NCBI GenBank assembly: GCA_964493485.1 | Contig: CAZBMQ010000001.1 | Location: 43,616 to 107,615 of the forward strand | Length of the DNA: 64,000 nt | DNA from: an uncultured Candidatus Saccharibacteria bacterium | Lineage (GTDB): Bacteria > Patescibacteriota > Minisyncoccia > Minisyncoccales > JANBVM01 | Direction of reading: 5' to 3' | Shown: positions 12,385-60,889 of the stretch, one piece after another | Position numbering within the stretch: the stretch's first letter is position 1 | How the letters are laid out: every line of letters starts with the position of its first letter | The notes under the pieces: generated by a model | The model's database searches: none | Told to the model about the DNA's origin: nothing | The model's input: only the letters and a program-made list of their open reading frames with translations | Translations under genes and position numbers: made by a program

Positions 12385-13245
12385 TTATTTAAATTTTAAT
12401 TGTCTGCCGTCTGAAACAATCTTTATATCACCATCAATATCAGTTCTTAAAACTTTTATATCATATTTCTCTAAAATTTCCAAAACCTCCTTGTGGGGAT
12501 GATCATACTTATTATTCTTTCCGACAGATATTACAGCTATTTGAGGACTGACATTTTGTAAAAATTCCTCACCAGTTGAAGTCTTACTGCCGTGATGAGC
12601 TGTCTTTAAAACATCAGAATCCAGCACCACTCCTTTTTCTATAAGTTTATTTTCCACTGATTTATAAATATCTCCTGTGAACAAAAAAGATGTATTATCA
12701 AACACCAAGCGAAGAACTATTGATGTATTATTTGTATTCCCTATTTTTCTCCCTTGCAAGTCTTCAAAAGGAGAAATCACTCTGAAGCTTAGAGCTGGAG
12801 TAATAATCTTTTGTCCCCTCTTTACTATTCTCGTATCAATTGATTCTTCTTTTAATATCTTCTCCCATTCTTGATATTCTCCTGTATCTCTTAATACTCC
12901 TGTCCATAAAACATAATCTACTTTATATCTTTTCAAAACCTCAATTAAACCTGCCATATGGTCATGCTCAGGATGAGTTAGGACAATTAAATCTATTGTC
13001 CTATCCCAAAAAGGCATTTCTTGTCCCAACTTTTCTAAAATTGCGGAGGACGGACCTCCGTCAATTAAAATCTGATAGTTATAAGGTGTCTCAATAAATA
13101 TTGCATCGCCCTGACCTACATTAAAAAAATTAACCTCAAGTAATTGAGGTTTAATCAGCTCATAAACAATACTCCAGCTACATATATTTATAAATAATAA
13201 AACCCCAAAAATAAAAAAGAGGGGTTTTTTGAGAATTTTTTCCAT
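12385..13245 (-). CDS. ComEC/Rec2-type metallo-beta-lactamase domain protein, stand-alone, N-terminal TM anchor
   Basis: Motifs FNVGQGDAIFIE, LVLTHPEHDHMAGL and KTAHHGSKTS are present. ATG at 13245 (MEKILKK); the track ORF begins at an upstream GTG. Confidence 0.75.
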   Translation of the reverse strand: MEKILKKPLFFIFGVLLFINICSWSIVYELIKPQLLEVNFFNVGQGDAIFIETPYNYQILIDGGPSSAILEKLGQEMPFWDRTIDLIVLTHPEHDHMAGLIEVLKRYKVDYVLWTGVLRDTGEYQEWEKILKEESIDTRIVKRGQKIITPALSFRVISPFEDLQGRKIGNTNNTSIVLRLVFDNTSFLFTGDIYKSVENKLIEKGVVLDSDVLKTAHHGSKTSTGEEFLQNVSPQIAVISVGKNNKYDHPHKEVLEILEKYDIKVLRTDIDGDIKIVSDGRQLKFK

Positions 13246-19755: not shown

Positions 19756-19783
19756 TTGGTTTGTTGTAAAGTAAAGAATAAAA

Positions 19784-19810
19784 ACGCAGAAGAAATTCTT
19801 CTGCGTTTTT
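19784..19810 (+). terminator. Intrinsic terminator ACGCAGAAG...CTTCTGCGT plus TTTT
   Basis: Perfect 9-bp stem, read directly. Confidence 0.7.
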
Positions 19811-19816
19811 AGGGTA

Positions 19817-24460: not shown

Positions 24461-24521
24461 TTAGGACATTTTAATTCTATGTCCTAATTTTGTCCTATTT
24501 TAGTGTCCTAATTTTGTCCTA
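24461..24521. promoter_or_regulatory. Cluster of five TGTCCTA/TAGGACA motifs (one inverted pair forming a 9-bp hairpin, then GTCCTAATTTTGTCCTA x2)
   Basis: TAGGAC at 24462; GTCCTA at 24481, 24492, 24505 and 24516 (spacings 11, 13, 11). The cluster overlaps the last codons of 24500-27553. Confidence 0.5.
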
Positions 24522-27500
24522 GTTCTTCTCTTTCTGACTATTTTCTTTACTTTTTTGTTTTTGGATTCCTCTTCTGAATCTCGTCTTTTCCAAAATAATA
24601 AAATCAATAAAAGAATAGGAAAAGCTATCCCATACATTTCATCGTCAGAAAGAAATTGTCCAACTGCAGCCAAAAGGTTGCCAAATACATTGTATTCTTT
24701 TTGATAGGAGAATTCGTCAGACATCAAATCATAGTATTTCGATTCGTAAGTTTCCGGTTCTCCTGTCTCTTCCTCTGCTAACACCTCTTGCACTATTGTT
24801 TTTACAAATTTTTCTGCTGGAGGTTCGGGGGTAATTCTTTGTATCTCTTCGTTTATTATCCTTATTTGTTTTTCAATCTCATCTAACTTTTCTTCAATCT
24901 CTTCAATAGAAACACCAGGCTCCTCTTGAGACTCCTCTGGTTCTGTTGCTTCCTCTTCAGAAAGAAGTTCTCCATTTCTTACCTCAATTGTCGTAGAAGC
25001 TATTTCTGAACTTACTGGATTGCCCAGTTGTCCAAAACCAATAGCCTGAGCAGTATTAGTATACAATCCAGATGGAATTTCTCCTCCTATAGCCACAGTG
25101 TAATCTATTGTTATCTCCTCATGTGGTAGTACCACGCCCAAATCCCAAGTATAGGTATTAATCACCTCTGAATCTTCATTTAATATGGTGTCTGTTACAA
25201 CCACATCATATGCTGCCCCATTACTATTATTAAGCAATACAATGGTATAACCTACATTCACAGGAGGAGAAACATAATCAGTATTATTTGTTTTTGTGAT
25301 TTCTAATTTAGGAAAAAACCACAAAAGAGGAACTGTTTTATATACTTCTACAGACAGACTGTCTGAATTATCTGCCTCATTCCAGTCGTCCTCATAACTG
25401 TCTATTATAGCCTCATTAACTAAATAACTATTTCCAGAAGGGATATCAGAATTAACTGTCACAGTATAAGAAACTGAACCAGAACCGCCTGCTGGAACTG
25501 TCCCAATTTCCCACATTATCTCTCCAGGATTATCTATCACAGTACCTCCCCCCTTATCTTTTATTGAAATATATCTTTCATCAAAATCATCTGTGATGAC
25601 AACCCCAGTAGCATCAGCATCCCCGTTGTTTCTATAGGTTAAAGTGTATGTAATAGTACCTCCTGGTTGAGTTGGTGTAGATTGAGTAATAGCGCTCTCA
25701 CCAATCCATAAATCTGGTCTGCCAAAAGCAAGATTGCCTTCCCAAGTGCCAAAAATGTTTATCATTCCCAGCAGCCAGTTTGTTCCAATCAGATCTGAAT
25801 TTAAAATATTTATAAGATTACTGAATACATTGGCATTCCCTGTCTGAATTGCAGCTTCTCCATTCTCAGCAAAAGCTGTATTGTCTCCAGTAGAGACATT
25901 CACTATTACACTATTTTTAATAAATCCTGTATTATCATTGACAATATCTAATACAGTATTTCCTGCCGGATTATTAAAGCCGTCGGAATCTAAATTATAA
26001 ATTTTAATTCCATTTATGTCTTCTGCTATATCTAATCCAGGAGGCAGGCTGAAAATATTTCCCTTCCATCCTCCAAACACATTAATTGCCATTATTAACC
26101 ATCTCCCTCCTACAAAGCTAGTGTTTACCATGTTCATAATATTGCTTTTAACAGTGCTGTCTCCTGTATAAATTACTGCATCCTCTCCTTCAGCTTCGTT
26201 TGTTCCAGTATCAGCATTTATTGAAACTTCGTTCTCCACCACACCTTCTGATGTATTGATTATAGAAGCCCCGCATCCTCCTATACAAGCAGTTGGCTGG
26301 TCTAAAAATCCCTGCACAGAATCTTTATTAGGAAGTATTAAGTCCCCTACCCAGTTATCAAATACATTAATAATTAAATTAGTCCAGTTTGAACCAATAA
26401 CATTGGTATTTAAAAGATTAAAAATACTGGCTGAGACATTTACATCTCCAGTATTGATAAATGCATCTCCATCTTCACTGGTAGCTGTATTCGAACCGCT
26501 TGAACCTTCAATAAACACATTGTTTTCAATTACTCCCGCATTCTCGTTGTGAATATCAAAACAATCTGTTGTAGAAAGCGCATGATTTTCAGAGATAGAG
26601 TTATCTAAAATATCAGAGATATTAATGTCTCCTTGTAAAAATTCAAAAATATTAAATAGAAAATTAGAAAAATCAGAATTGATAATATTTGTATTAACGG
26701 TATTGGTCAAAGCCACTACTAAATTTGTATTTCCAGTATAGATAAAACTGTCTCCTGAGTTACTTTCTGCTGTATTTTCTCCTGTCTCTCCTTCTAACAC
26801 TATATTATTTTCCACTATTGCCTCGTCTTCATTAACAATGCCAATTTCACAATCACATTCACATGGACATTCGCATTCCTCCTCAGGCTCTCCGCATTCG
26901 CATTCTTCTGGACACTCACATCCACAGGTTTCTGTTTCTGTCTCATCAGAATTTACTTCATTTTCAATATCAACTTCCCCATCTGCATCTCCTGTGACTA
27001 CAACACTATCTTCGTTTCCATCTTCATTCCCCTCTTGTAATCCTTCGTCTTCAGGCAAAGTTTCTTGAATATCATCTGAACTTGAGGAATTATTTGTTTC
27101 CTCTGGAGCTGTGTTTTCTGAGCTTGTTGCAGCTGGTGTTTCAAATTCTTCAGTACTCTCTCCTTCATTGTTCTCACTGTTCTCTCCTTCAGAATCCTCC
27201 TGGGCTGTATCTTGATCTGTGCTTCCTGAACCTTCATTATCTTGTGCTTCACTATCAGCGTCGTTTTCTTCTTCTGGAGCTTCTCCATTATCAGACCCGT
27301 TCTCTTCTGGATTCTCCTGGGTATTGCTCTCTTCCCCAGTACTCTCTTCATTTGAATCTCCTCCATTGCCTCCATTATCCATATCTGAATTCTGTTCAGA
27401 GTCTTCGTTTTCATCTGAAACAACGTCTGTATTAATTGAAGACCCTCCGTCTTCTGCTAAAGCAAAAAAGGTGTGATTATTGAAAACCACTAAACTAAAA

Positions 27501-27553
27501 ATAACTACACCCGCCAGAAAGAACCTTTTTAATTTATTTTGTTTTTTGTTCAT
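24500..27553 (-). CDS. 1017-aa secreted surface protein
   Basis: Signal peptide, then an acidic D/E/N/S region and a Cys-rich CxC patch. Four copies of the TG-x-N-x-A / TG-[DN] module. Two DUF11/CARDB-like repeats (ITYTLTYRNNGDADATGVVITD...). Acidic linker, then C-terminal NLLAAVG motif, TM helix and basic tail. Confidence 0.8.
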   Translation of the reverse strand: MNKKQNKLKRFFLAGVVIFSLVVFNNHTFFALAEDGGSSINTDVVSDENEDSEQNSDMDNGGNGGDSNEESTGEESNTQENPEENGSDNGEAPEEENDADSEAQDNEGSGSTDQDTAQEDSEGENSENNEGESTEEFETPAATSSENTAPEETNNSSSSDDIQETLPEDEGLQEGNEDGNEDSVVVTGDADGEVDIENEVNSDETETETCGCECPEECECGEPEEECECPCECDCEIGIVNEDEAIVENNIVLEGETGENTAESNSGDSFIYTGNTNLVVALTNTVNTNIINSDFSNFLFNIFEFLQGDINISDILDNSISENHALSTTDCFDIHNENAGVIENNVFIEGSSGSNTATSEDGDAFINTGDVNVSASIFNLLNTNVIGSNWTNLIINVFDNWVGDLILPNKDSVQGFLDQPTACIGGCGASIINTSEGVVENEVSINADTGTNEAEGEDAVIYTGDSTVKSNIMNMVNTSFVGGRWLIMAINVFGGWKGNIFSLPPGLDIAEDINGIKIYNLDSDGFNNPAGNTVLDIVNDNTGFIKNSVIVNVSTGDNTAFAENGEAAIQTGNANVFSNLINILNSDLIGTNWLLGMINIFGTWEGNLAFGRPDLWIGESAITQSTPTQPGGTITYTLTYRNNGDADATGVVITDDFDERYISIKDKGGGTVIDNPGEIMWEIGTVPAGGSGSVSYTVTVNSDIPSGNSYLVNEAIIDSYEDDWNEADNSDSLSVEVYKTVPLLWFFPKLEITKTNNTDYVSPPVNVGYTIVLLNNSNGAAYDVVVTDTILNEDSEVINTYTWDLGVVLPHEEITIDYTVAIGGEIPSGLYTNTAQAIGFGQLGNPVSSEIASTTIEVRNGELLSEEEATEPEESQEEPGVSIEEIEEKLDEIEKQIRIINEEIQRITPEPPAEKFVKTIVQEVLAEEETGEPETYESKYYDLMSDEFSYQKEYNVFGNLLAAVGQFLSDDEMYGIAFPILLLILLFWKRRDSEEESKNKKVKKIVRKRRTRTKLGH

Positions 27554-27563
27554 AAAATAATTT

Positions 27564-28139
27564 TTACAGATTGATTATATTAATAAGATTTTGAAAAAAT
27601 GATTTTAGATTTTCGACAAGACCTAAATACCATTTTTTAATAAAATTAACTTGTTGTGTTTGAAATGCTTCATTTTCTTTAATACCTACACTGCTTGTTT
27701 CTATTTTCTGTGGGTTTTCTAAACTCACTTCATAAGTGTGTGTGCTCTTTTTTGAATCAATTTCTACTTCTCTTTCAACCTTAATTTCATCACCTTCTCC
27801 ATCTGTCTCAATCTTATTTTCTACTTTCACCTTATTTGCTTCTACCTCAATCTCAATTGGCTCTATCTCTACACCATTAATTACATTTTTTACCTCCACC
27901 TTTATCTCTTTTTTCCCTTCTTTTATTGAAGATGTTCCATTGTCAGCCTCATTCCCGCCTGTATTGGAAGAGACATTGATTTTGTTAATAACTCTAGTTT
28001 CTCCCTCAGTAGTATTATCTCTAGAAAACCAATCATCAAAGAGATCTTCTAGAAAAAACCCCTGACAATATCTTGGAATAATTCCTAAAAACACAAGCAA
28101 GACAAACAATCCAATTTCTTTTTTAATTATTTTTCTCAT
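27564..28139 (-). CDS. 191-aa secreted/anchored protein with one partial TG-x-N-x-A module and E/K/V-rich beta-like repeats
   Basis: N-terminal hydrophobic segment IGLFVLLVFLGIIP, and VINKINVSSNTGGNEADNG. Confidence 0.6.
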   Translation of the reverse strand: MRKIIKKEIGLFVLLVFLGIIPRYCQGFFLEDLFDDWFSRDNTTEGETRVINKINVSSNTGGNEADNGTSSIKEGKKEIKVEVKNVINGVEIEPIEIEVEANKVKVENKIETDGEGDEIKVEREVEIDSKKSTHTYEVSLENPQKIETSSVGIKENEAFQTQQVNFIKKWYLGLVENLKSFFQNLINIINL

Positions 28140-28229: not shown

Positions 28230-29018
28230 CTAGCGTAAAATTCTGTTAATCACAGAGTTAATAACATTCATAACATTTGCCTGTGCCCAAGCATTACCTG
28301 TGAAGATAACACCCCCATTACCGCCTCTGCCGCCATTTCCGCCATCACCACCATTGTTTCTCTGTTCTCCCCATGCACAATGGCCACAACCGCCGCTGTT
28401 TCCATTATGGTTGGCGTCACCAGCATTACCGCCATTGCCGCCGTCCTCACCATTGGCTCCGTTTTGACCGCTTTCAGCATCAACAGATACTGTATTGTAA
28501 ACATCAGCCCAGTCTTTATTGACAACTATTATGTCATCAATACAGCCGCAAGGAGGATATGATGGTCCACATCCGTTTCTTTCAATACAAGAATCGTTGC
28601 ATGGCTCATTTTCAGGAGGACAAGCGCAGGCATTAATCTTGGTATCATTTGTATTGACAAGATTATTTACATTTGCCCGTGCCAAAGCATTCCCAGTATC
28701 CACAAAGCCTCCATTGCCGCCAGCTCCTCCATTTCCGCCATTACCACCATTGTTTCTCTGGTCGCCTCTCCAGTTTCTATTGTAAGAAGCAGAACCAGCA
28801 TTACCGCCGTTGCCGCCATCATCACCATTGGCTTCGTTATAGCCAGTGCTGGCACTTACTTCTACCCTGTTCTTCACTACTGCATCCTTTTTGTTCACAA
28901 CTATAATATCGTGACCAAAAAATCCAAATGGGAAAAACCCATCTCCTGCAAATACAGGTGCAGCAGCAGAAACGAGTAAGGCTGCGGTGGTAAAAACGCC
29001 TAAAATTTTCTTGTTCAT
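28230..29018 (-). CDS. 262-aa secreted Gly/Asn-rich protein, two copies of the shared module each split by a GGNGGNGG tract
   Basis: Signal peptide MNKKILGVFTTAALLVSAAAPVFA. Module halves VVNK..V.N.V.V.A.[ST]G.N.ANG ... NNGG[ND]GGNGG.GGNGG.[IV].TGNA.A.ANV.N, present twice. Confidence 0.7.
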   Translation of the reverse strand: MNKKILGVFTTAALLVSAAAPVFAGDGFFPFGFFGHDIIVVNKKDAVVKNRVEVSASTGYNEANGDDGGNGGNAGSASYNRNWRGDQRNNGGNGGNGGAGGNGGFVDTGNALARANVNNLVNTNDTKINACACPPENEPCNDSCIERNGCGPSYPPCGCIDDIIVVNKDWADVYNTVSVDAESGQNGANGEDGGNGGNAGDANHNGNSGGCGHCAWGEQRNNGGDGGNGGRGGNGGVIFTGNAWAQANVMNVINSVINRILR

Positions 29019-29039
29019 TTTTGTTTTGAAATTATTTAC

Positions 29040-29300
29040 TCCGCCTCAATCCTATATAGGATATCAACGGATCTCTCTGCTATTTTTTCGTTTGCCCGAT
29101 AAGTCTTTCATTTTTGTCAGCAGAGATTTTTTCGGGCAACGCGACCTTTGCTAGGTTCTAATCCCTGAACCTTGCTCCGAACTCCATAGAGCTCGGGACT
29201 CGCCCCGAACCTTTATGGATCGGGGCATGGCACAGGATAGAGCCCAAGCTTTAATGCATTTTGATGCACTAAAGCCAGAGTTCTATTATTGTGCTTTTAA
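29040..29300 (-). promoter_or_regulatory. Structured ~260-nt leader upstream of the Gly/Asn-rich protein gene
   Basis: Stems seen: GCCCCGA/TCGGGGC, CCGARCTC/GAGCTCGG, GCTTTARTGCAT/ATGCACTAAAGC, CGTTTGCCCGA/TCGGGCAACG interleaved with TCTCTGCT/AGCAGAGA (pseudoknot order), and palindrome ATCCTATATAGGAT. Mismatches become G-U only on the minus strand. Confidence 0.5.
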
Positions 29301-29311
29301 AAAAAATAAAA

Positions 29312-29334
29312 AACTTCTCCTTCCGGAAGAAGTT
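29312..29334. terminator. Hairpin AACTTCT(CC-TTCC-GG)AGAAGTT flanked by A-run and T-run
   Basis: Read directly. It lies inside the long minus-strand leader. Confidence 0.5.
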
Positions 29335-29728
29335 CTTTTTGGAACTAGGTATTTATATTTATTTGTATCAATCTGCCATTTCCTCCCTGGCATTTAAATC
29401 TCAATCTAGTCCTCCCCTAAATTGATACAACACTACCTAGTCCTCCTATCTAGATAGCGATGAATTTGTCATGTTTTTCTATTTTATGCTATTTCAAAAA
29501 ATAATGTTAAGCGGGGAAAAATTTTTTGTCCTTATCTTATGTCCTGCTTTTACCTACTCTATCTCTTTTTAAAACAAAAGTCAAGAAAACTCTCAACCAT
29601 AAATAGCCTATTGTCCTAATCTATACTATTTTCGAAAAAAGTCAAGAAAAACATATTCTTTTTAAAATATCTTAATTTCTTTTACAAAATTATTTCTTTC
29701 TATTCTCTTTTTGTTTTTTAAAAACAAA

Positions 29729-29793
29729 AAGGCTGTCTTTGGGCGCCATAACTAAGGAGGAATTCATTTAGTACGGCGCCCAGAGACAGCCTT
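29729..29793. terminator. 24-bp hairpin (19-bp lower stem plus ACTAA/TTAGT) with a 12-nt apical loop GGAGGAATTCAT, flanked by A-run and T-run
   Basis: AAGGCTGTCTTTGGGCGCC (29729-29747) pairs with GGCGCCCAGAGACAGCCTT (29775-29793). There is one T-G (plus sense) or A-C (minus sense) position. Confidence 0.6.
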
Positions 29794-29861
29794 CTTTTTT
29801 CTGTTTACTACGAAATATTTAACTTAATTAAAAACATAGAATTTGCACTCTATGTTTCTTT

Positions 29862-29889
29862 ATTATACCAAGTCAAAAAATTTTGTCAA
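29862..29889 (-). promoter_or_regulatory. Near-consensus promoter TTGACA-N16-TATAAT pointing toward the leader and secreted-protein genes
   Basis: -35 is the complement of 29884-29889 and -10 is the complement of 29862-29867. Confidence 0.6.
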
Positions 29890-29894
29890 TATTT

Positions 29895-29975
29895 CCTGTC
29901 CTATCTTCTAACACCTTGTCCTACCTTATATCATATAATTAGGACAATTTAAAGATAGGACAGGAGTCTTAGGAC
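29895..29975. promoter_or_regulatory. Nested inverted repeats built from TGTCCTA/TAGGACA between the divergent promoters
   Basis: Outer pair CCTGTCCTATC (29895-29905) / GATAGGACAGG (29954-29964), perfect 11 bp. Inner pair TTGTCCTA (29916-29923) / TAGGACAA (29940-29947). An extra TAGGACA lies at 29970. Confidence 0.55.
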
Positions 29976-29983
29976 AAAGTTAT

Positions 29984-30012
29984 TTGACTTTTTTAATTTT
30001 AAAAGGTAATAC
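29984..30012 (+). promoter_or_regulatory. Candidate promoter TTGACT-N17-TAATAC for the GT2 operon
   Basis: -35 at 29984-29989 and -10 at 30007-30012. ATG at 30049. Confidence 0.4.
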
Positions 30013-30048
30013 AAGAATATAAATTCATAATATGTCAAACATAGAAGT

Positions 30049-31383
30049 ATGAAAACATCTCTGATTGAGCTTACAAATGAATTATATCAATTAACTCTTC
30101 TTTTTCCGAAAAAAGAACCTCTGCGCTACAAACTTAGAGAAACAGCTGATGATATCTTGGCAGATTTTATTTCTCTTACTTCCTATTCCTCTATATATCA
30201 ACAAAATGAAATAGTTCTACAAACTAAAAACTTAAAAACAAAACTAGAAATCCTTGATAGTTTTTTGGAAGTCGCAAAGAATCAAAATTGGGTCAATAAA
30301 GAAAATATTTTAAGGTTAAAAGAGAAATATCAAAAATTATTAAAACCTTTCCTGCTTCAAGATATAAAAATTTCAATATTAATCCCCTGCTTCAATGAAG
30401 AAAAATCAATACGAAAATGTATTGAGTCTTGTTTAAACCAAACAAAAAAACCCTATGAAATTGTAGTAGTAGATGATGGAAGCACAGATAGAACTCCGGA
30501 AATATTAAAAAGTTTTGAAGATAAAATAACAGTAGTACGGATTCCTAAAAATACTGGAAATAAAAGCTATGCACAAGAGTTTGGATTAAAATTTATTCAC
30601 GGAGATGTTTTCATTACAACTGATGCAGATACAATATTAGATAAGAATTTTGTAAAAAGAATCTTTTTAGATTTTAAAGATAGAAAAGTAGCAGCAGTGG
30701 CAGGTTATGTAAGGTCCTTAAAATATAATTGGTTAACTACCTGCAGAGAACTGGATTATATTATAGGACAAGATATACATAAATTAGCACAATCATATAT
30801 CAATGCCTTGTTTGTTATACCTGGATGTGCAGGCGCTTTCAGAACAGAAGTGTTTAAAAAATATATAGGTTTTGACCATGACACAGTAACAGAGGACTTA
30901 GATTTTACCTACAAACTTCATGAAAACCAATTCAAAATAATATATGATAAAAAAGCCATAGCATACACTCAAGATCCTCAAAATCTCAAATCCTATATCA
31001 ACCAAATGAAAAGATGGTATAGAGGCGGATGGCAAAACCTAATAAAGCATCTTAAATCCATAAGCAAAAAGGAAGTAAATGTGTTCGAGTTATCCTTAAT
31101 TTATATAGAAGGACTTATGTTCTCAGCTCTGTTGTTTCTAATACCTCTGCTTAATATTAATTTCTTTAGACATTACATCTTCTTTTATTTTGCTGTTTTA
31201 TTTGGATGCGCAGTTTATGGAGCCCTCACAAGAAAAAGGCTTGATTTACTATTCTGTTTCCCTTTTTATTTCTTGATTGTATTTTTAAATGCCTGGATAT
31301 TCTGGGAAGAATTTATTAAAGAAATAATATTTAAAAATGGAGACTTGGCCTGGTTTAAACCAGAAAGAGCCAGAATAATATGA
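30049..31383 (+). CDS. Processive family-2 glycosyltransferase (PgaC/NodC/IcaA-like) fused to an N-terminal ~110-aa four-helix-bundle-like domain
   Basis: GT2 motifs: SILIPCFNEE, VVVDDGSTDRT, TDADT, TEDLDF and QMKRWYRGGWQ (QxxRW), with C-terminal TM helices. The N-terminus (LTNELYQLTLLFPKKEPLRYKLRETADDI) resembles the 23S-IVS-type four-helix-bundle family (recollection). Confidence 0.75.
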   Translation: MKTSLIELTNELYQLTLLFPKKEPLRYKLRETADDILADFISLTSYSSIYQQNEIVLQTKNLKTKLEILDSFLEVAKNQNWVNKENILRLKEKYQKLLKPFLLQDIKISILIPCFNEEKSIRKCIESCLNQTKKPYEIVVVDDGSTDRTPEILKSFEDKITVVRIPKNTGNKSYAQEFGLKFIHGDVFITTDADTILDKNFVKRIFLDFKDRKVAAVAGYVRSLKYNWLTTCRELDYIIGQDIHKLAQSYINALFVIPGCAGAFRTEVFKKYIGFDHDTVTEDLDFTYKLHENQFKIIYDKKAIAYTQDPQNLKSYINQMKRWYRGGWQNLIKHLKSISKKEVNVFELSLIYIEGLMFSALLFLIPLLNINFFRHYIFFYFAVLFGCAVYGALTRKRLDLLFCFPFYFLIVFLNAWIFWEEFIKEIIFKNGDLAWFKPERARII

Positions 31384-33043: not shown

Positions 33044-33119
33044 ATTTCTTTTGCTTTATCTTTTCCTTTATTTCTTTTATTTTGTCTTTTATTTCTTCAA
33101 TTCTTCTTTTATCATTTCC

Positions 33120-33157
33120 ATACGCGTTAATTTCGGATATCCGAAATTAACGCGTAT
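33120..33157. repeat. 38-bp perfect palindrome ATACGCGTTAATTTCGGAT|ATCCGAAATTAACGCGTAT
   Basis: Read directly. Contains the ATTTCGGAT core of the intergenic repeat family. Confidence 0.9.
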
Positions 33158-33189
33158 ACTTTTGAAGCAACCATAAAGTAATTAAAAAT

Positions 33190-52089: not shown

Positions 52090-52683
52090 CTACCATTTTA
52101 ACAAAAATTCATGATATTCATCTCCTTTAAATACACACTTTATTTCTTCACATTCCACCTTGCCGCCCACTACCATTCCTAATACACTGGCGAAATATCC
52201 TTTAAGCACCTGGCATTGCACAGGCACCAATCGGTAATTCTGAAGTCTCAACACTCCAGAAGATTCATCGAGCTTTACTACCTCTAAATCTCCTACTGTA
52301 AATGTCTGTCTCCAGATTTTAGGAGCCTCTCTTGCTGCTCTTTCAAGAGAAATAAAGTATTTCATAAAGATTCTTATAATAAAAGAGATTTTTGGCTCAA
52401 ACCTGCCCATTTCCTGAAATTTCTTGTCGTCGTAATTAAAAAGCCGTTCTATTACTGTCAACAGAACAGCATCATACCATAAAGGATAAAAAATCATCTC
52501 TTTCAGGTTTTTATATGTTATAGGACAACCAAAATCTGCTAATATCTTTTCTAGTTTCTCCAGATTACCCCTTCCCTCTTCCTTTAATATAAACTCCATA
52601 TTTTCCTTCAAAGCCACCCCCTTTACTTCTCCCTTTATCTTTTTAAACTCTTCTAATTCTTCTTTTGAAATTATTTGTTCCAT
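52090..52683 (-). CDS. V4R/H-NOX-like sensor-domain protein, paralog 2 of 6
   Basis: Full-length alignment to the family. Ends CEEIKCVFKGDEYHEFLLKW. Confidence 0.7.
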   Translation of the reverse strand: MEQIISKEELEEFKKIKGEVKGVALKENMEFILKEEGRGNLEKLEKILADFGCPITYKNLKEMIFYPLWYDAVLLTVIERLFNYDDKKFQEMGRFEPKISFIIRIFMKYFISLERAAREAPKIWRQTFTVGDLEVVKLDESSGVLRLQNYRLVPVQCQVLKGYFASVLGMVVGGKVECEEIKCVFKGDEYHEFLLKW

Positions 52684-56536: not shown

Positions 56537-57139
56537 CTACCATTCCATTAAAAACTCATAACATTCATCTCCTCTAAAGGGAGATTTTATTTCTTCCCCT
56601 TTAGCTTTCTGTCCTCCTATCATCTGAAGGACGCTTGAAAAATAACCTATAAGAACCTGTCCTTGAAGAGGGTGAACTTTGAAATTCTCAATCCTTAAAA
56701 TCAAGCGTCTCTTCTCCTCATTGTATTCCATTAGCTTAACTTGTCCTATAGTATATGATTTTCTCCACATCTCGGGAGCTCGCTTCATTATTTCTTTAAC
56801 AGAGAAAAAATATCTTGCAAAAACTCTAACAAGTATTGAGCTTTTTGCTGAAAACTCTCCTATCTCCTGAAATGTCTCTGCTGTATAATTAAACATTCGC
56901 TTCATTAACTCCAAAATTACTGCCTGTAAACCTACAGGATAAAAATGCATTCCTTTCACTTCTTTAAATCTAAAGGGATACCCAAAGTCTGTTATTATCT
57001 CTTCTATCTCTTTTGTTTTCTCTTCTCCCTCTTTTTTAAGCAAATAATCCCCATATCCTTTTAGCGTCACCCCCCTCACCTCTCCTTTTATCTTCATCAG
57101 TTCATCAAATTCTTCTTTTGTAAGAAGAATCCTATCCAT
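56537..57139 (-). CDS. V4R/H-NOX-like sensor-domain protein, paralog 3 of 6 (Cys3-His positions all substituted)
   Basis: Aligns to the family. The C-terminus KGEEIKSPFRGDECYEFLMEW lacks the C-x4-C and the His. Confidence 0.7.
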   Translation of the reverse strand: MDRILLTKEEFDELMKIKGEVRGVTLKGYGDYLLKKEGEEKTKEIEEIITDFGYPFRFKEVKGMHFYPVGLQAVILELMKRMFNYTAETFQEIGEFSAKSSILVRVFARYFFSVKEIMKRAPEMWRKSYTIGQVKLMEYNEEKRRLILRIENFKVHPLQGQVLIGYFSSVLQMIGGQKAKGEEIKSPFRGDECYEFLMEW

Positions 57140-57806: not shown

Positions 57807-58409
57807 TTATTTCCACCTTAAAACAAACTCATGATACTTATCTCCTTTATGAATACATTTTGTTTCTTTACAAACAACCTCACCTTTTGTTACTATCTTC
57901 AACAATCCTACAAAAGAACCTCTTAAAGAATGACATTGCATAGGAAGATTTAGGAAATTCTCAAGTCTTAAAACAGCGTATTTGTCTTTTTCGTTGTATT
58001 CTATTACCTTAATATCTCCTATTGAAAAATATCTCCTCCACATTTTTGCAGCTCCATTTACAATACCTTTAATAGAACCGAAATACCTCATAAAAAGCCG
58101 AGTTAATAAAGAAGATTTTGTATGAAACTCACCCATTTCAAAAAAATCTTTATCTTTAAAACCCAAAAATTTCTCCAGGCAAGTTAATAAAAGATTATCT
58201 ATTCCTATGGGATAAAAATTTAAAGCCTTTATTTCTCTATATCTAATCGGATATCCAAACTCTTCCATTTTCTTTTCTATCTCTTCTATCTTTTCTTTGC
58301 CAAATTTTTTAAGGATATAATCAAAATCATTTCTCAAAGCTATTCCTCTTATCTCACCCTTCATATTAACTAATTTTTCAATCTCTTCTTTTGTTATTGT
58401 TTGCTCCAT
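57807..58409 (-). CDS. V4R/H-NOX-like sensor-domain protein, paralog 4 of 6
   Basis: Ends CKETKCIHKGDKYHEFVLRWK. Confidence 0.7.
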   Translation of the reverse strand: MEQTITKEEIEKLVNMKGEIRGIALRNDFDYILKKFGKEKIEEIEKKMEEFGYPIRYREIKALNFYPIGIDNLLLTCLEKFLGFKDKDFFEMGEFHTKSSLLTRLFMRYFGSIKGIVNGAAKMWRRYFSIGDIKVIEYNEKDKYAVLRLENFLNLPMQCHSLRGSFVGLLKIVTKGEVVCKETKCIHKGDKYHEFVLRWK

Positions 58410-58438: not shown

Positions 58439-59041
58439 TTATTCCCATTCTAAAACAAACTCATGATACTTATCTCCTTTATGAATACATTTTGTTTCTT
58501 TACAAGTAACCTTGCTTTTAACTAACATCTGAATCATATTAGCATATATACCTGTCATCACAGCACATTGAACAGGATGTAAACAATAATTCTTTAATCT
58601 CAAAATTCCTCTTTTTTTCTTTTTATCAAAATCTATAGCTTCCAATTCGCCTACTGTAAAATATTTTTTCCACATTTCAGGAACCTTTTTTATTGCTTTT
58701 TCAAAAGAAAAAAAATAATTTATGAAAATTTTAATAAACACATATGCTCTAGACCTAAACCTTCCCATCTCATGAAGATCTTCGTAAGTGTACTTAAAAA
58801 GTCTTTGAGTTACTAAAAGTGTAAGACCTAATAAATTAAGAGGGTAAAAACCTATTGATTTTATTCTATTGTAATTTATTGGATATCCCAATTCTGCCAT
58901 TACCTTCTCTAACTTTTGCAATCCCTCTCTCCCTTCTTTTTTCAATACAAAATCAGCAGTATTTTTCATAGCAATTCCTCTTACTTCTCCTTTTATCTTC
59001 ATCAGCTCATTAATTTCTTCTCTTGAAATCATTTGTTGCAT
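58439..59041 (-). CDS. V4R/H-NOX-like sensor-domain protein, paralog 5 of 6
   Basis: Ends CKETKCIHKGDKYHEFVLEWE. Confidence 0.7.
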   Translation of the reverse strand: MQQMISREEINELMKIKGEVRGIAMKNTADFVLKKEGREGLQKLEKVMAELGYPINYNRIKSIGFYPLNLLGLTLLVTQRLFKYTYEDLHEMGRFRSRAYVFIKIFINYFFSFEKAIKKVPEMWKKYFTVGELEAIDFDKKKKRGILRLKNYCLHPVQCAVMTGIYANMIQMLVKSKVTCKETKCIHKGDKYHEFVLEWE

Positions 59042-60289: not shown

Positions 60290-60889
60290 TTACCATTCAA
60301 CTATAAACTCATGATATTTGTCTCCCATACGAGGGCATTTTATCTCTTTGCAAAAAACTTGGCTTTTTACTACCATCTGAACCACCCCAGAGAAATATCC
60401 TTTGAGTATATCACAATGAGCAGGGAAATAAGGAAAATTTTCGATTCTCAAGATTATATATCTTTTTTTCTCATCAAACTCTATCAATCTAGCTTCTCCG
60501 ATTGTATAATATTTCCTCCAATATTCTGGAATGGTAGTTACTATCTTCTTAAGTGAAACAAAATATTTCATAAAAATCCTAACAAGCATTGAAAGCTTGG
60601 CACCCATTTTTCCCATATCTTGAAAATTTTTATCATCATAATCAAAAAGTCGCTTCATCACTAACAAAGTTATTGCGAGTAGTTTTATAGGATAAAGATT
60701 GTTTTCTTTAATCTCCTGATACTTTAATGGAAATCCAAGTTTAATCATTGTATCTTCTATTTTTTTTAATCCATTTTCTCCCTCCCTTTCAAAAACAAAA
60801 TTCATAGGTTCTCTTATTCCTCTTCCTCTTACTTCACCTTTTATCTTCATTAAATTATTAAATTCTTCTTTTGAAATTATCTGCTCCAT
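60290..60889 (-). CDS. V4R/H-NOX-like sensor-domain protein, paralog 6 of 6
   Basis: Ends CKEIKCPRMGDKYHEFIVEW. Confidence 0.7.
   Translation of the reverse strand: MEQIISKEEFNNLMKIKGEVRGRGIREPMNFVFEREGENGLKKIEDTMIKLGFPLKYQEIKENNLYPIKLLAITLLVMKRLFDYDDKNFQDMGKMGAKLSMLVRIFMKYFVSLKKIVTTIPEYWRKYYTIGEARLIEFDEKKRYIILRIENFPYFPAHCDILKGYFSGVVQMVVKSQVFCKEIKCPRMGDKYHEFIVEW

Follow-up and report, generated by a model that had tools for sequence, protein, structure and literature searches.

The window analyzed here is a 64,000-nt (64-kb) stretch of contig CAZBMQ010000001.1, which we examined together with homologous loci from public assemblies, and the element in question is a long hairpin encoded in a 1030-nt gap separating two divergent genes. 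With moderate confidence, judging from sequence comparison, we read this hairpin as the first (M1) of three modules in an RNA regulatory region lying before a surface-protein operon in Parcubacteria, in which a terminated RNA of ~140 nt would pair with the operon leader. One flank of the gap is a family-2 glycosyltransferase gene on the plus strand (30049-31383). The other is the operon, which runs on the minus strand and begins with a gene for a 262-aa secreted protein with GGNGGN repeats (28230..29018, ATG at 29018), followed by genes for a 191-aa protein (27564-28139) and a 1017-aa CLIPPER/DUF11 surface protein (24500-27553). Products of the neighboring genes thus include the glycosyltransferase and surface proteins, along with a deacetylase-like protein and a histidine-kinase-like ATPase. 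The window has a G+C content of ~33% and carries most of its genes on the minus strand, and its protein matches are to Parcubacteria (Candidate Phyla Radiation, CPR), with homolog names including Nomurabacteria and Kaiserbacteria. The lineage is thinly sampled, since the nearest non-identical homolog of the 262-aa protein shares only 53% identity with it.

A promoter, P1, with the sequence TTGACA-N16-(TG)gTATAAT (29862..29889, minus strand) and its TG two bases ahead of the -10 box, is the sole site in the window to match all 12 consensus positions; an earlier note on this DNA had called it the best promoter match. The chance expectation for a 12/12 match is 0.12 per window (roughly one in eight such stretches), and at least one turned up in 12 of 100 shuffles, so the match taken on its own is only mildly significant; seven more sites in the window match at 11/12. 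Transcription from P1 is predicted to start near 29855, which is 62 nt ahead of the stem of the long hairpin and 837 nt ahead of the ATG at 29018. Exactly at this predicted start, a small 5'-terminal hairpin is predicted to fold on the minus strand (29832..29856; ACAUAGA/UCUAUGU core, then U5), which could serve as a 5'-end stabilizer or as a pause site or terminator, and a 38-nt AU-rich linker (29831-29794, minus) leads from it to M1. Just 5' of the long hairpin, the window (29801-29810) shares the 8-mer CGUAGUAA with one related locus, L011 (~1996-2003), an AUAU-rich stretch standing before both copies; this may be a coincidence, of a kind expected in roughly a few per cent of cases.

M1 itself (29729..29793, minus) consists of a 19-position outer stem, an ACUAA/UUAGU extension, and a 12-nt loop that reads AUGAAUUCCUCC in minus sense (29767-29756). 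Its arms (29729-29747 and 29775-29793) form 18 Watson-Crick pairs and one mismatch (T.G in plus sense, A.C in minus sense), the stem base is GC-rich (GGCUGUC/GACAGCC), and the 3' half of the loop together with the first two stem bases makes up a C/U-rich motif, UUCCUCCUU (29754..29762, minus). The hairpin is the longest of the window, with a fold energy of -40 kcal/mol, a folding z-score of -9.4, and none of 200 shuffles equally stable; it is single-copy, no further copies having been found within the window. On the minus strand it continues into UUUUUGUUUUU, with 10 U in 11 nt, and this U-run directly after M1, UUUGUUUUU (29715..29728, minus), is likely to mark the 3' end of the RNA. Stem, extension, loop, and U-run are thus all present as the earlier note had described them. 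Infernal searches against Rfam, which that note had suggested, found no family at gathering score in the whole window, and in E-value mode (28900-30150 and ten related loci) they returned only weak microRNA-like hairpin matches; none of the RNA parts described here is in Rfam. Nor was a tRNA or tmRNA found near the hairpin site. The only open reading frames (ORFs) inside the putative ~140-nt RNA are of 9 and 25 codons, without Shine-Dalgarno (SD) sequences and not conserved, and the 25-codon ORF, which starts in the M1 loop, was rejected as a candidate because it is destroyed in the flipped allele described below.

A plainer explanation would be that M1 separates the operon promoters from the divergent promoter region as a strong intrinsic terminator acting in both directions, or as an insulator, the complementarity of its loop to other sequences being incidental and of low complexity. 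With an A-run before the stem and a T-run after it, M1 is indeed terminator-shaped on both strands (the plus-strand U-run is CUUUUUUCUGUUU), it resembles two-way intrinsic terminators in its GC-rich stem base, its U-runs on both strands, and its high stability, and other two-way terminators occur in the window (e.g., 19778-19812). M1 is unlisted in our own terminator scan because its loop exceeds the 8-nt limit of that scan. In contrast to typical terminators, which have stems of 5-15 bp and loops of 3-8 nt, M1 has 24 paired positions and a 12-nt loop with a conserved motif, it far exceeds the other terminators of the window in length, and there is no upstream gene for it to terminate on either strand, the flanking genes being divergent. 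The conserved position and strand of the C-rich motif and the pairing tests presented below also count against this explanation, which we consider unlikely.

Between M1 and the operon, the minus strand of the window carries a series of further elements. Three promoter-like sites (at 29645, 29584, and 29510) precede a second intrinsic terminator, T2. Two of them are promoter-like repeats (29645-29618 and 29584-29556, minus), and the third, the candidate promoter P2 (TTAACA-N18-TAAAAT; 29481..29510, minus), lies ~350 nt downstream of P1 and nearest to the second module, M2. M2 comprises three hairpins with GGAGGA loops (29459-29430, 29425-29401, and 29392-29374; 29374..29459 overall, minus), the predicted partners of the M1 loop, on the same strand as M1 and ~300 nt from it. 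T2 (AACUUCUUCC GGAA GGAGAAGUU plus a U-run; 29296..29340, minus) lies between P2 and the operon, and the terminator that the earlier note had placed at 29312-29334 is therefore real, with its hairpin at 29338..29308. No promoter-like site was found between T2 and the ATG in the window.

The third module, M3 (29019..29295, minus), is a structured leader ahead of the 262-aa gene, which lacks an SD. It is conserved with the JGI contig L004 (1-263) despite the 53% protein identity: RNAalifold gives 29 pairs for the two sequences, four of them compensatory, and the conserved blocks are GCCAUGCCCCGA..UUCGGGGC, GCAAGGUUCAG, AAAGGUCGCGUU, and AUCUCUGCU. A possible pseudoknot was noticed by eye, in which GUUGCCCG/CGGGCAAC becomes GUUACCCA/UGGGUAAU and AUCUCUGCU/AGCAGAGAU is kept. 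M3 had no match in Rfam, and a multi-locus alignment gave nothing informative beyond the window/L004 pair; going by the predicted fold, M3 may be a new structured leader or riboswitch-like element. A leader peptide or small ORF was rejected by inspection, as the ORFs after GGAGGA or GGGGAA vary in frame, length, and spacing among loci.

The same DNA is rich in TGTCCTA/TAGGACA boxes; the window holds 33 where 16 would be expected, a count that none of 100 shuffles attains, with boxes at 29897-29976, 29527-29618, 24462-24521, and 12979-13003. They cluster upstream of P1, where they include a perfect 14-nt inverted repeat (29894-29907/29952-29965), and are also found directly 3' of the two promoter-like leader repeats and upstream of a gene for a 1405-aa surface protein. 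Their placement suggests operators at which a single regulator would control a regulon of surface proteins.

Six loci from different Parcubacteria with a homologous operon (L011, L014, L015, L016, L025, and L027) were available for comparison. All six have a homologous gene of the 262-aa type, most of them with a small protein and a ~1000-aa CLIPPER protein encoded after it, and gene order is that of the window in L011, L014, L015, and L027. Upstream of the operon, each of the six has 450-750 nt of non-coding DNA with the same parts in a common order on the sense strand, namely the long hairpin M1, a strong promoter, a G-rich motif, the terminator T2, and the leader M3; the window has this order too, plus its additional promoter-like repeats between M1 and M2. 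The M1 hairpins of the relatives have outer stems of 12-22 bp, ~22-35 pairs in total, and z-scores of -6 to -11. P1-like promoters stand before them in L011 (TTGACA-N17-TAATAT), L025 (TTGACA-N17-TATAAC), and L014 (TTGATT-N16-TATATT), and a small hairpin with a U-run is found just 5' of the long hairpin in L014 and L016 as well. A U-run follows M1 in L011, L025, and L016. In L025, the hairpin begins ~12 nt past the predicted start and ends in the U-run, and by its sequence it looks like a free-standing RNA of ~95 nt.

The downstream parts are conserved to a similar plan. P2, between M1 and T2, is directed toward the operon in all seven loci (the window included) and has 9-11 of 12 consensus matches in five of the six relatives, reaching 11/12 in L014, L015, and L016 (TTGACA-N16 followed by TATTAT, TATCAT, or TATAGT). 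The G-rich motif of the relatives (GGGGAA or GGGAAA), often a hairpin loop, lies 10-40 nt from the predicted P2 start and, whether in a loop or a helix, 71-89 nt ahead of T2 in 6/6; a C-rich partner in cis lies 3' of it, followed by T2. In these six loci, 100-160 nt separate the M1 motif from the M2 motif. T2 occupies the same position in 7/7 loci, and in the window and most relatives the stretch from T2 to the start codon showed no recognizable promoter, so expression of the operon probably depends on passing T2. M3 in the relatives is a leader of 150-280 nt with an AAGGTCG box.

Wider searches were also made. A GTDB protein-pattern scan gave 199 pattern matches, none confirmed; a GTDB DNA-pattern scan for the conserved leader gave six matches, which came from unrelated phyla without exception and were taken for chance matches; and a metagenome scan gave only six weak loci, with L021 and L023 duplicating L011 and with L019 and L020 showing a different hairpin variant. 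In L019 (2005-2060) and L020 (2296-2355), a more distant homolog (411-aa) has an upstream TTGACA promoter and a 24-25-bp hairpin (AAACGGAGGC...GCCUCCGUUU) that ends in a U-run; GAGGGG(G)GAAAGGAAA, an SD, and the ATG come next. The upper stems of the two differ by compensatory changes, and the arrangement would be an attenuator-like variant in which GGAGG and CCUCC are the two arms. The L025 sequence (537-2500) belongs to a metagenome-assembled genome record labelled Anaplasmataceae, yet it has a Parcubacteria-type operon with all three RNA modules, preceded by ~1.4 kb without a called gene; the taxonomic label is apparently mistaken.

Among loci, the stem sequences of M1 are wholly different and the pairing is kept, with double changes at 13 of 17 consensus pairs in a crude alignment. 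In the relatives, the apex has an unpaired pyrimidine stretch (CAUUUCCCU, CAUUCCCC, GCUUUCCCAU, UGUUUCCCCCUC, UGCUUCCCCA, and GGUUUUCCC) 3' of an inner hairpin, and a UUYCCC motif is found at the 3' apical part in 6/6; the operon-sense strand bears the C-rich motif in 7/7 loci, the window included. In all six relatives, M1 folds more stably in sense than in antisense, by 0.6-7.8 kcal/mol, G.U pairs favoring the sense RNA. A covariance model, R1, was trained on L014, L015, and L027 and tested on the untrained loci L011, L025, and L016, in each of which it matched at the expected place on the sense strand. The sense scores were 32.3 bits in L011 (E 4e-5; no antisense match listed), 35.1 bits in L025 (E 2e-6; antisense 17.0 bits), and 20.1 bits in L016 (E 0.009; antisense 11.5 bits). 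Because the sense strand both scores and folds better in the relatives, the RNA appears to be read in the direction of the operon.

The complementarity between the M1 motif and the downstream region of its own locus was measured as the longest Watson-Crick complement, against 1000 shuffles. L025 (CUGCUUCCCCAG / CUGGGGAAGCAG) and L027 (GCUGGCUUUCCC / GGGAAAGCCAGC) each have a 12-nt match that 0/1000 shuffles equal, L015 has a 9-nt match (UCAUUCCCC / GGGGAAUGA; 7/1000 shuffles as good), and L016 has an 8-nt match (GUUUCCCC / GGGGAAAC; 56/1000). The flanks around the shared core vary among loci with complementarity kept, and the core itself is altered on both sides in the window, where it is UUCCUCC/GGAGGAA as against UUCCCC/GGGGAA elsewhere. 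Because inner hairpins confounded an RNAduplex matrix of the whole apex, the comparison was made at the level of the motifs. In a permutation test with 5040 permutations, in which the targets were the 120 or 150 nt before T2 and hence chosen independently of the motif, the cognate duplex energies summed to -136.8 kcal/mol, compared with a permutation mean of -106 (sd 9), and 10 permutations were as good; the best pairing site lies 51-89 nt ahead of T2 at every locus. For the window, the predicted duplexes of UUCCUCCUU with the three GGAGGA loops have energies of -13.6, -12.7, and -11.7 kcal/mol, and three of the top four sites for the M1 loop in the 710-nt leader are the GGAGGA hairpin loops. 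By these sequence tests, the M1 and M2 motifs are complementary and co-vary among loci, with strong support in L015, L016, L025, and L027. The shuffle results for L025 and L027, with their co-varying flanks, and the permutation result argue against incidental complementarity at a two-way terminator; the match of the window, which is not significant alone, is in keeping with it.

The earlier note had proposed that the loop might sequester ribosome-binding sites, a suggestion that did not survive comparison with the rest of the window. An SD-like sequence of 4 nt or longer is present in the 17 bases upstream of the start in only 6 of 54 ATG-ORFs of at least 150 aa, SD-like sequences occur in the window at near background frequency, the 262-aa gene and its homologs have none, and the best complements of the loop are the three leader hairpin loops. 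Many genes of the window have a -10 box (TATAAT-like, often TGnTATAAT-like) 5-8 nt before the ATG, for example the leaderless-looking minus-strand ORFs starting at 59041, 57139, 13245, 9922, and 2038 with their TGnTATAAT-like boxes, which suggests widespread leaderless mRNAs and leaderless translation. Judged on this sample of its sequence, the genome appears nearly free of SD sites. As SD sequences are barely used and leaderless genes are indicated, GGAGGA/UCCUCC here is unlikely to concern ribosomes, and in a largely SD-less, leaderless organism of this kind a GGAGG/CCUCC pair need not involve ribosomes at all.

We propose the following mechanism, all functional statements about these RNAs, from transcription and termination to pairing in vivo and its regulatory outcome, being derived from sequence comparison and predicted folds. 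P1 would start a transcript near 29855 that contains the small 5' hairpin, the AU-rich linker, and the long hairpin. Transcription would stop near 29718, owing to the GC-rich stem base and U-run, and the product would be a free RNA of ~140 nt, which is the simplest reading of these features in the window. Through its unpaired C/U-rich apex motif, this RNA would then pair with the GGAGGA loops of the three small hairpins, which would lie at the 5' end of an operon leader that starts at the second promoter and has T2 downstream. Such loop-loop pairing could take place in trans or within read-through transcripts, and it would tune either the amount of surviving leader RNA or the passage of T2, and with it surface-protein output. 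An alternative outcome would be a change in 5'-end stability, as for the small RNA (sRNA) RoxS at the 5' end of a target (PMC5419742). One of two readings in the earlier note, a terminated sRNA of ~110 nt, is borne out in outline, in that promoter, hairpin, and U-run recur in distant relatives, but the predicted length is nearer 140 nt.

The other reading of that note, a series of attenuators in one leader, is likewise borne out in part and leads to a second alternative, in which M1 is a cis-acting domain of a single long leader: transcripts from P1 would run through, the C-rich loop would kiss the G-rich loops of the same molecule, and the hairpin and T2 would act as successive attenuators, the extent of read-through determining expression of the operon. 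This is kept alive by L014, L015, and L027, where M1 has no U-run and would, under our proposal, act within a longer transcript or after processing. The conserved T2, the lack of a recognizable promoter between T2 and the start codon in the window and most relatives, and the spacing of just 100-160 nt between the motifs in the six relatives agree with it as well. Against it stand the strong terminator shape of the window hairpin, with its GC-rich base and 10 U in 11 nt, and the promoters between M1 and M2 elsewhere; given these promoters, the operon does not need P1, and the first hairpin need not be read through. The parts that the earlier note had invoked by analogy for reading through serial terminators, as in EAR or ops/RfaH-LoaP systems, were not recovered either: the window gave no match to EAR or any other Rfam family, the leader has no ops element, and no NusG/KOW protein was found among 25 ORFs of 150-260 aa within this 64 kb of the genome. 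An antiterminator model for T2 was rejected, since no alternative antiterminator fold was found and constrained folding left T2 unchanged. On this evidence, we regard the single-leader alternative as somewhat unlikely.

The hairpin differs between assemblies in a way that may bear on its function. ENA assembly ERZ27248458 (contig k141_668513; L001) is 99.8% identical to the window over 13.3 kb, with 11 single-nucleotide polymorphisms (SNPs) outside the hairpin, and at 29739-29783 it is the exact reverse complement of the window. This 45-nt segment contains the loop and the inner arms, including the mismatch position, and has no promoter inside; the caution of the earlier note that the T-G/A-C mismatch left the orientation unsettled was therefore apt, both orientations of the interior existing in public assemblies. 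In the window form (form W), the sense RNA has UCCUCC in its loop and an A.C mismatch in the stem, and in the L001 form (form E) it has GGAGGA and U.G. Position 29794 is C in the window and T in L001, where the T lengthens the stem and perfects the extension. In the Logan assembly SRR7051285, contigs L002 and L003 open with an identical 30-mer from within the hairpin and part company after it: L002 follows the window exactly into the right flank, and L003 follows L001 exactly into the left flank. At 28992, L003 has the allele of the window, and at 27622 that of L001. There are thus at least two structural alleles, given the opposite orientations of the window and L001 and the two junction types in L002 and L003, and the SRR7051285 sample would contain either both forms or a third, perfectly palindromic form. 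L030 (ERZ27248139) ends 1-2 nt from the hairpin boundary, which is weaker evidence because Logan contigs also break at a perfect palindrome at 33119-33158, inside which L002 ends. No flips were seen at the L011 locus, in five assemblies, or at the L016 locus, in two, the assemblies of each being identical. The palindrome at 33119-33158, of 17 bp with a 4-nt loop (ACGCGTTAATTTCGGATATCCGAAATTAACGCGT), lies between genes for a 209-aa ATPase-like protein and a P-type ATPase. Nine of the SNPs between the window and L001 fall within 64 nt (25736-25799) inside the 1017-aa CLIPPER gene, with two others in the remaining 13 kb, and this cluster is a local hypervariable or gene-conversion patch.

An inverted hairpin interior raises the possibility that the region acts as DNA, either as a cruciform or inverted repeat that is a protein-binding or recombination site, or as C and G motifs flanking an invertible P2 in a phase-variation system. 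The inversion itself, the 12-bp inverted repeats that bracket P2 in L025 and L027, and the surface-protein nature of the operon speak for it. Like an inverton, the locus occurs in both orientations, but the inverted segment is only 45 nt long and has no promoter inside, and no recombinase is evident among the neighboring genes. To our knowledge, the 27-nt spacer is also too short for known invertases. P2 faces the operon in 7/7 loci, the three GGAGGA motifs lie in RNA hairpin loops, and the G.U pairs of the relatives favor the sense RNA. Exact spacer inversion with arm homogenization is, moreover, a known product of replication template switching at inverted repeats (PMC8604942, PMC8794818), and small inversions are common in plastid hairpins (PMC6824564). 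As in plastid small inversions and quasipalindrome mutagenesis, the spacer and inner arms are here exactly reverse-complemented between perfect outer arms, and the C-to-T change at 29794 that perfects the stem extension also fits the described outcomes (PMC8604942, PMC8794818, PMC6824564). Because template switching yields spacer inversion, no site-specific system is needed for the flip (PMC8604942), and we consider action at the DNA level very unlikely.

Returning to the proposed pairing RNA, the flip alters its pairing ability, since the flipped spacer is the predicted seed. The flipped loop loses its complementarity to the GGAGGA loops, and its best leader match becomes the 5' arm of T2 (-11.3 kcal/mol). 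The flip is either neutral damage or a switch that is put to use. In the latter case, the hairpin would be a recombinase-free genetic switch, in which template switching flips the 45-nt interior, changes the seed between UCCUCC and GGAGGA, and creates two heritable, interconvertible expression states of the surface operon; we think this idea decidedly unlikely, but if true it would be phase variation written into the seed of an sRNA. We know of no description of a flipped spacer serving as the seed of an sRNA.

Several observations weigh against the three-module reading. The comparison covers seven loci in all, and the motif windows were set partly by eye. In L011, L014, and the window, the complementarity is 6-7 nt (7-10 with G.U pairs) and individually not significant, and the cognate pair of L014 is the weakest in the matrix. 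Since M1 has no U-run in L014, L015, and L027, it is not a terminated sRNA everywhere. Since L001 exposes GGAGGA and not UCCUCC in its sense RNA, the pairing is not maintained in every genome, and the stem mismatch is A.C in the sense RNA of the window where the other allele has U.G. In constrained folding with the G motif blocked, the predicted T2 fold was unchanged at all seven loci, a purely thermodynamic prediction. Finally, the window M1 is a reduced form with no inner hairpin, in which UUCCUCC is the 3' half of a simple loop, and its R1 scores are 28.8 bits (minus strand) and 25.4 bits (plus strand), compared with 22.1 for an unrelated palindrome and ~22 for any long hairpin. Given the score of the unrelated palindrome, membership of the window hairpin in the family rests on its position, synteny, and layout: it stands in the same place as the long hairpins of the six relatives, upstream of the series of P2, G motif, T2, leader, and operon, and on the sense strand. 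The conservation of the hairpin in relatives that the earlier note had asked for is thus found in layout and position across six loci, and by synteny for the window.

Known systems offer partial parallels, the closest in function being the countertranscript-driven attenuation systems of Gram-positive plasmids and the sRNAs with C-rich loops of Firmicutes. In the attenuation systems of pT181, pIP501, and pAMbeta1, a small RNA contacts the loop of a nascent leader hairpin upstream of an intrinsic terminator, loop to loop at first. The terminator there lies tens of nt downstream, compared with 51-89 nt here. In contrast to our element, which is encoded upstream on the same strand with 7-12 nt of complementarity, the plasmid regulator comes from the opposite strand and is fully complementary, and plasmid attenuation has a competing antiterminator (preemptor) fold, of which none was found here. 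The long leader with more than one terminator before envelope or surface genes recalls EAR, LoaP, and RfaH-ops systems, but their defining parts were not found in the 64 kb and there are internal promoters between the terminators. M2 resembles CsrB and RsmZ in its three tandem hairpins with GGA-containing loops, but M2 has only one to three such loops, no CsrA gene was seen, though no search aimed at one was made, and the loops are complementary to a neighboring RNA, which a sponge would not need.

The candidate RNA also resembles RsaE/RoxS, the UCCC-motif Rsa RNAs, and RNAIII of Firmicutes in having its own promoter, a terminator hairpin, and an unpaired C-rich motif directed at G-rich targets. 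Pairing of RoxS with the very 5' end of a target can change 5'-to-3' decay (PMC5419742, PMC4409812), and the target motif here is likewise at the 5' end of the leader. Unlike RsaE/RoxS, with which it has no sequence or model similarity and no Rfam match in common, the candidate is encoded in tandem directly upstream of a single apparent target and carries its motif atop a 19-27 bp stem; RsaE targets are mostly SD regions, and the genome here hardly uses SD. The sRNA reading of the earlier note is thus partly supported, though with another target than the one it had proposed, and the element would be a lineage-specific base-pairing regulatory RNA with an unusual polymorphic seed.

RNA-based regulation is almost unknown in CPR bacteria (Patescibacteria), which cannot be grown alone and are known mainly from metagenomes. 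The locus offers a concrete, testable candidate, in which genes for large surface proteins, probably mediators of host contact, are preceded by a small RNA together with its target loops and by a conserved attenuator and structured leader. If the flipped allele affects expression, it would be a new route to heritable regulatory diversity; if it has no effect, it is a clear bacterial case of hairpin-spacer inversion and a caution for assemblies and strand calls at long hairpins.

Elsewhere in the window, an origin of replication was considered and rejected, the cumulative GC skew being monotonic throughout. On the minus strand, four ORFs of ~200 aa whose products carry a V4R domain at the C terminus form a tandem or near-tandem series (60293-60889, 58442-59041, 57810-58409, and 52093-52683), together with a fifth of similar size without a match (56540-57139, minus). 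All five appear leaderless, and the V4R-domain proteins may, by their domain content, be small-molecule-binding regulators.

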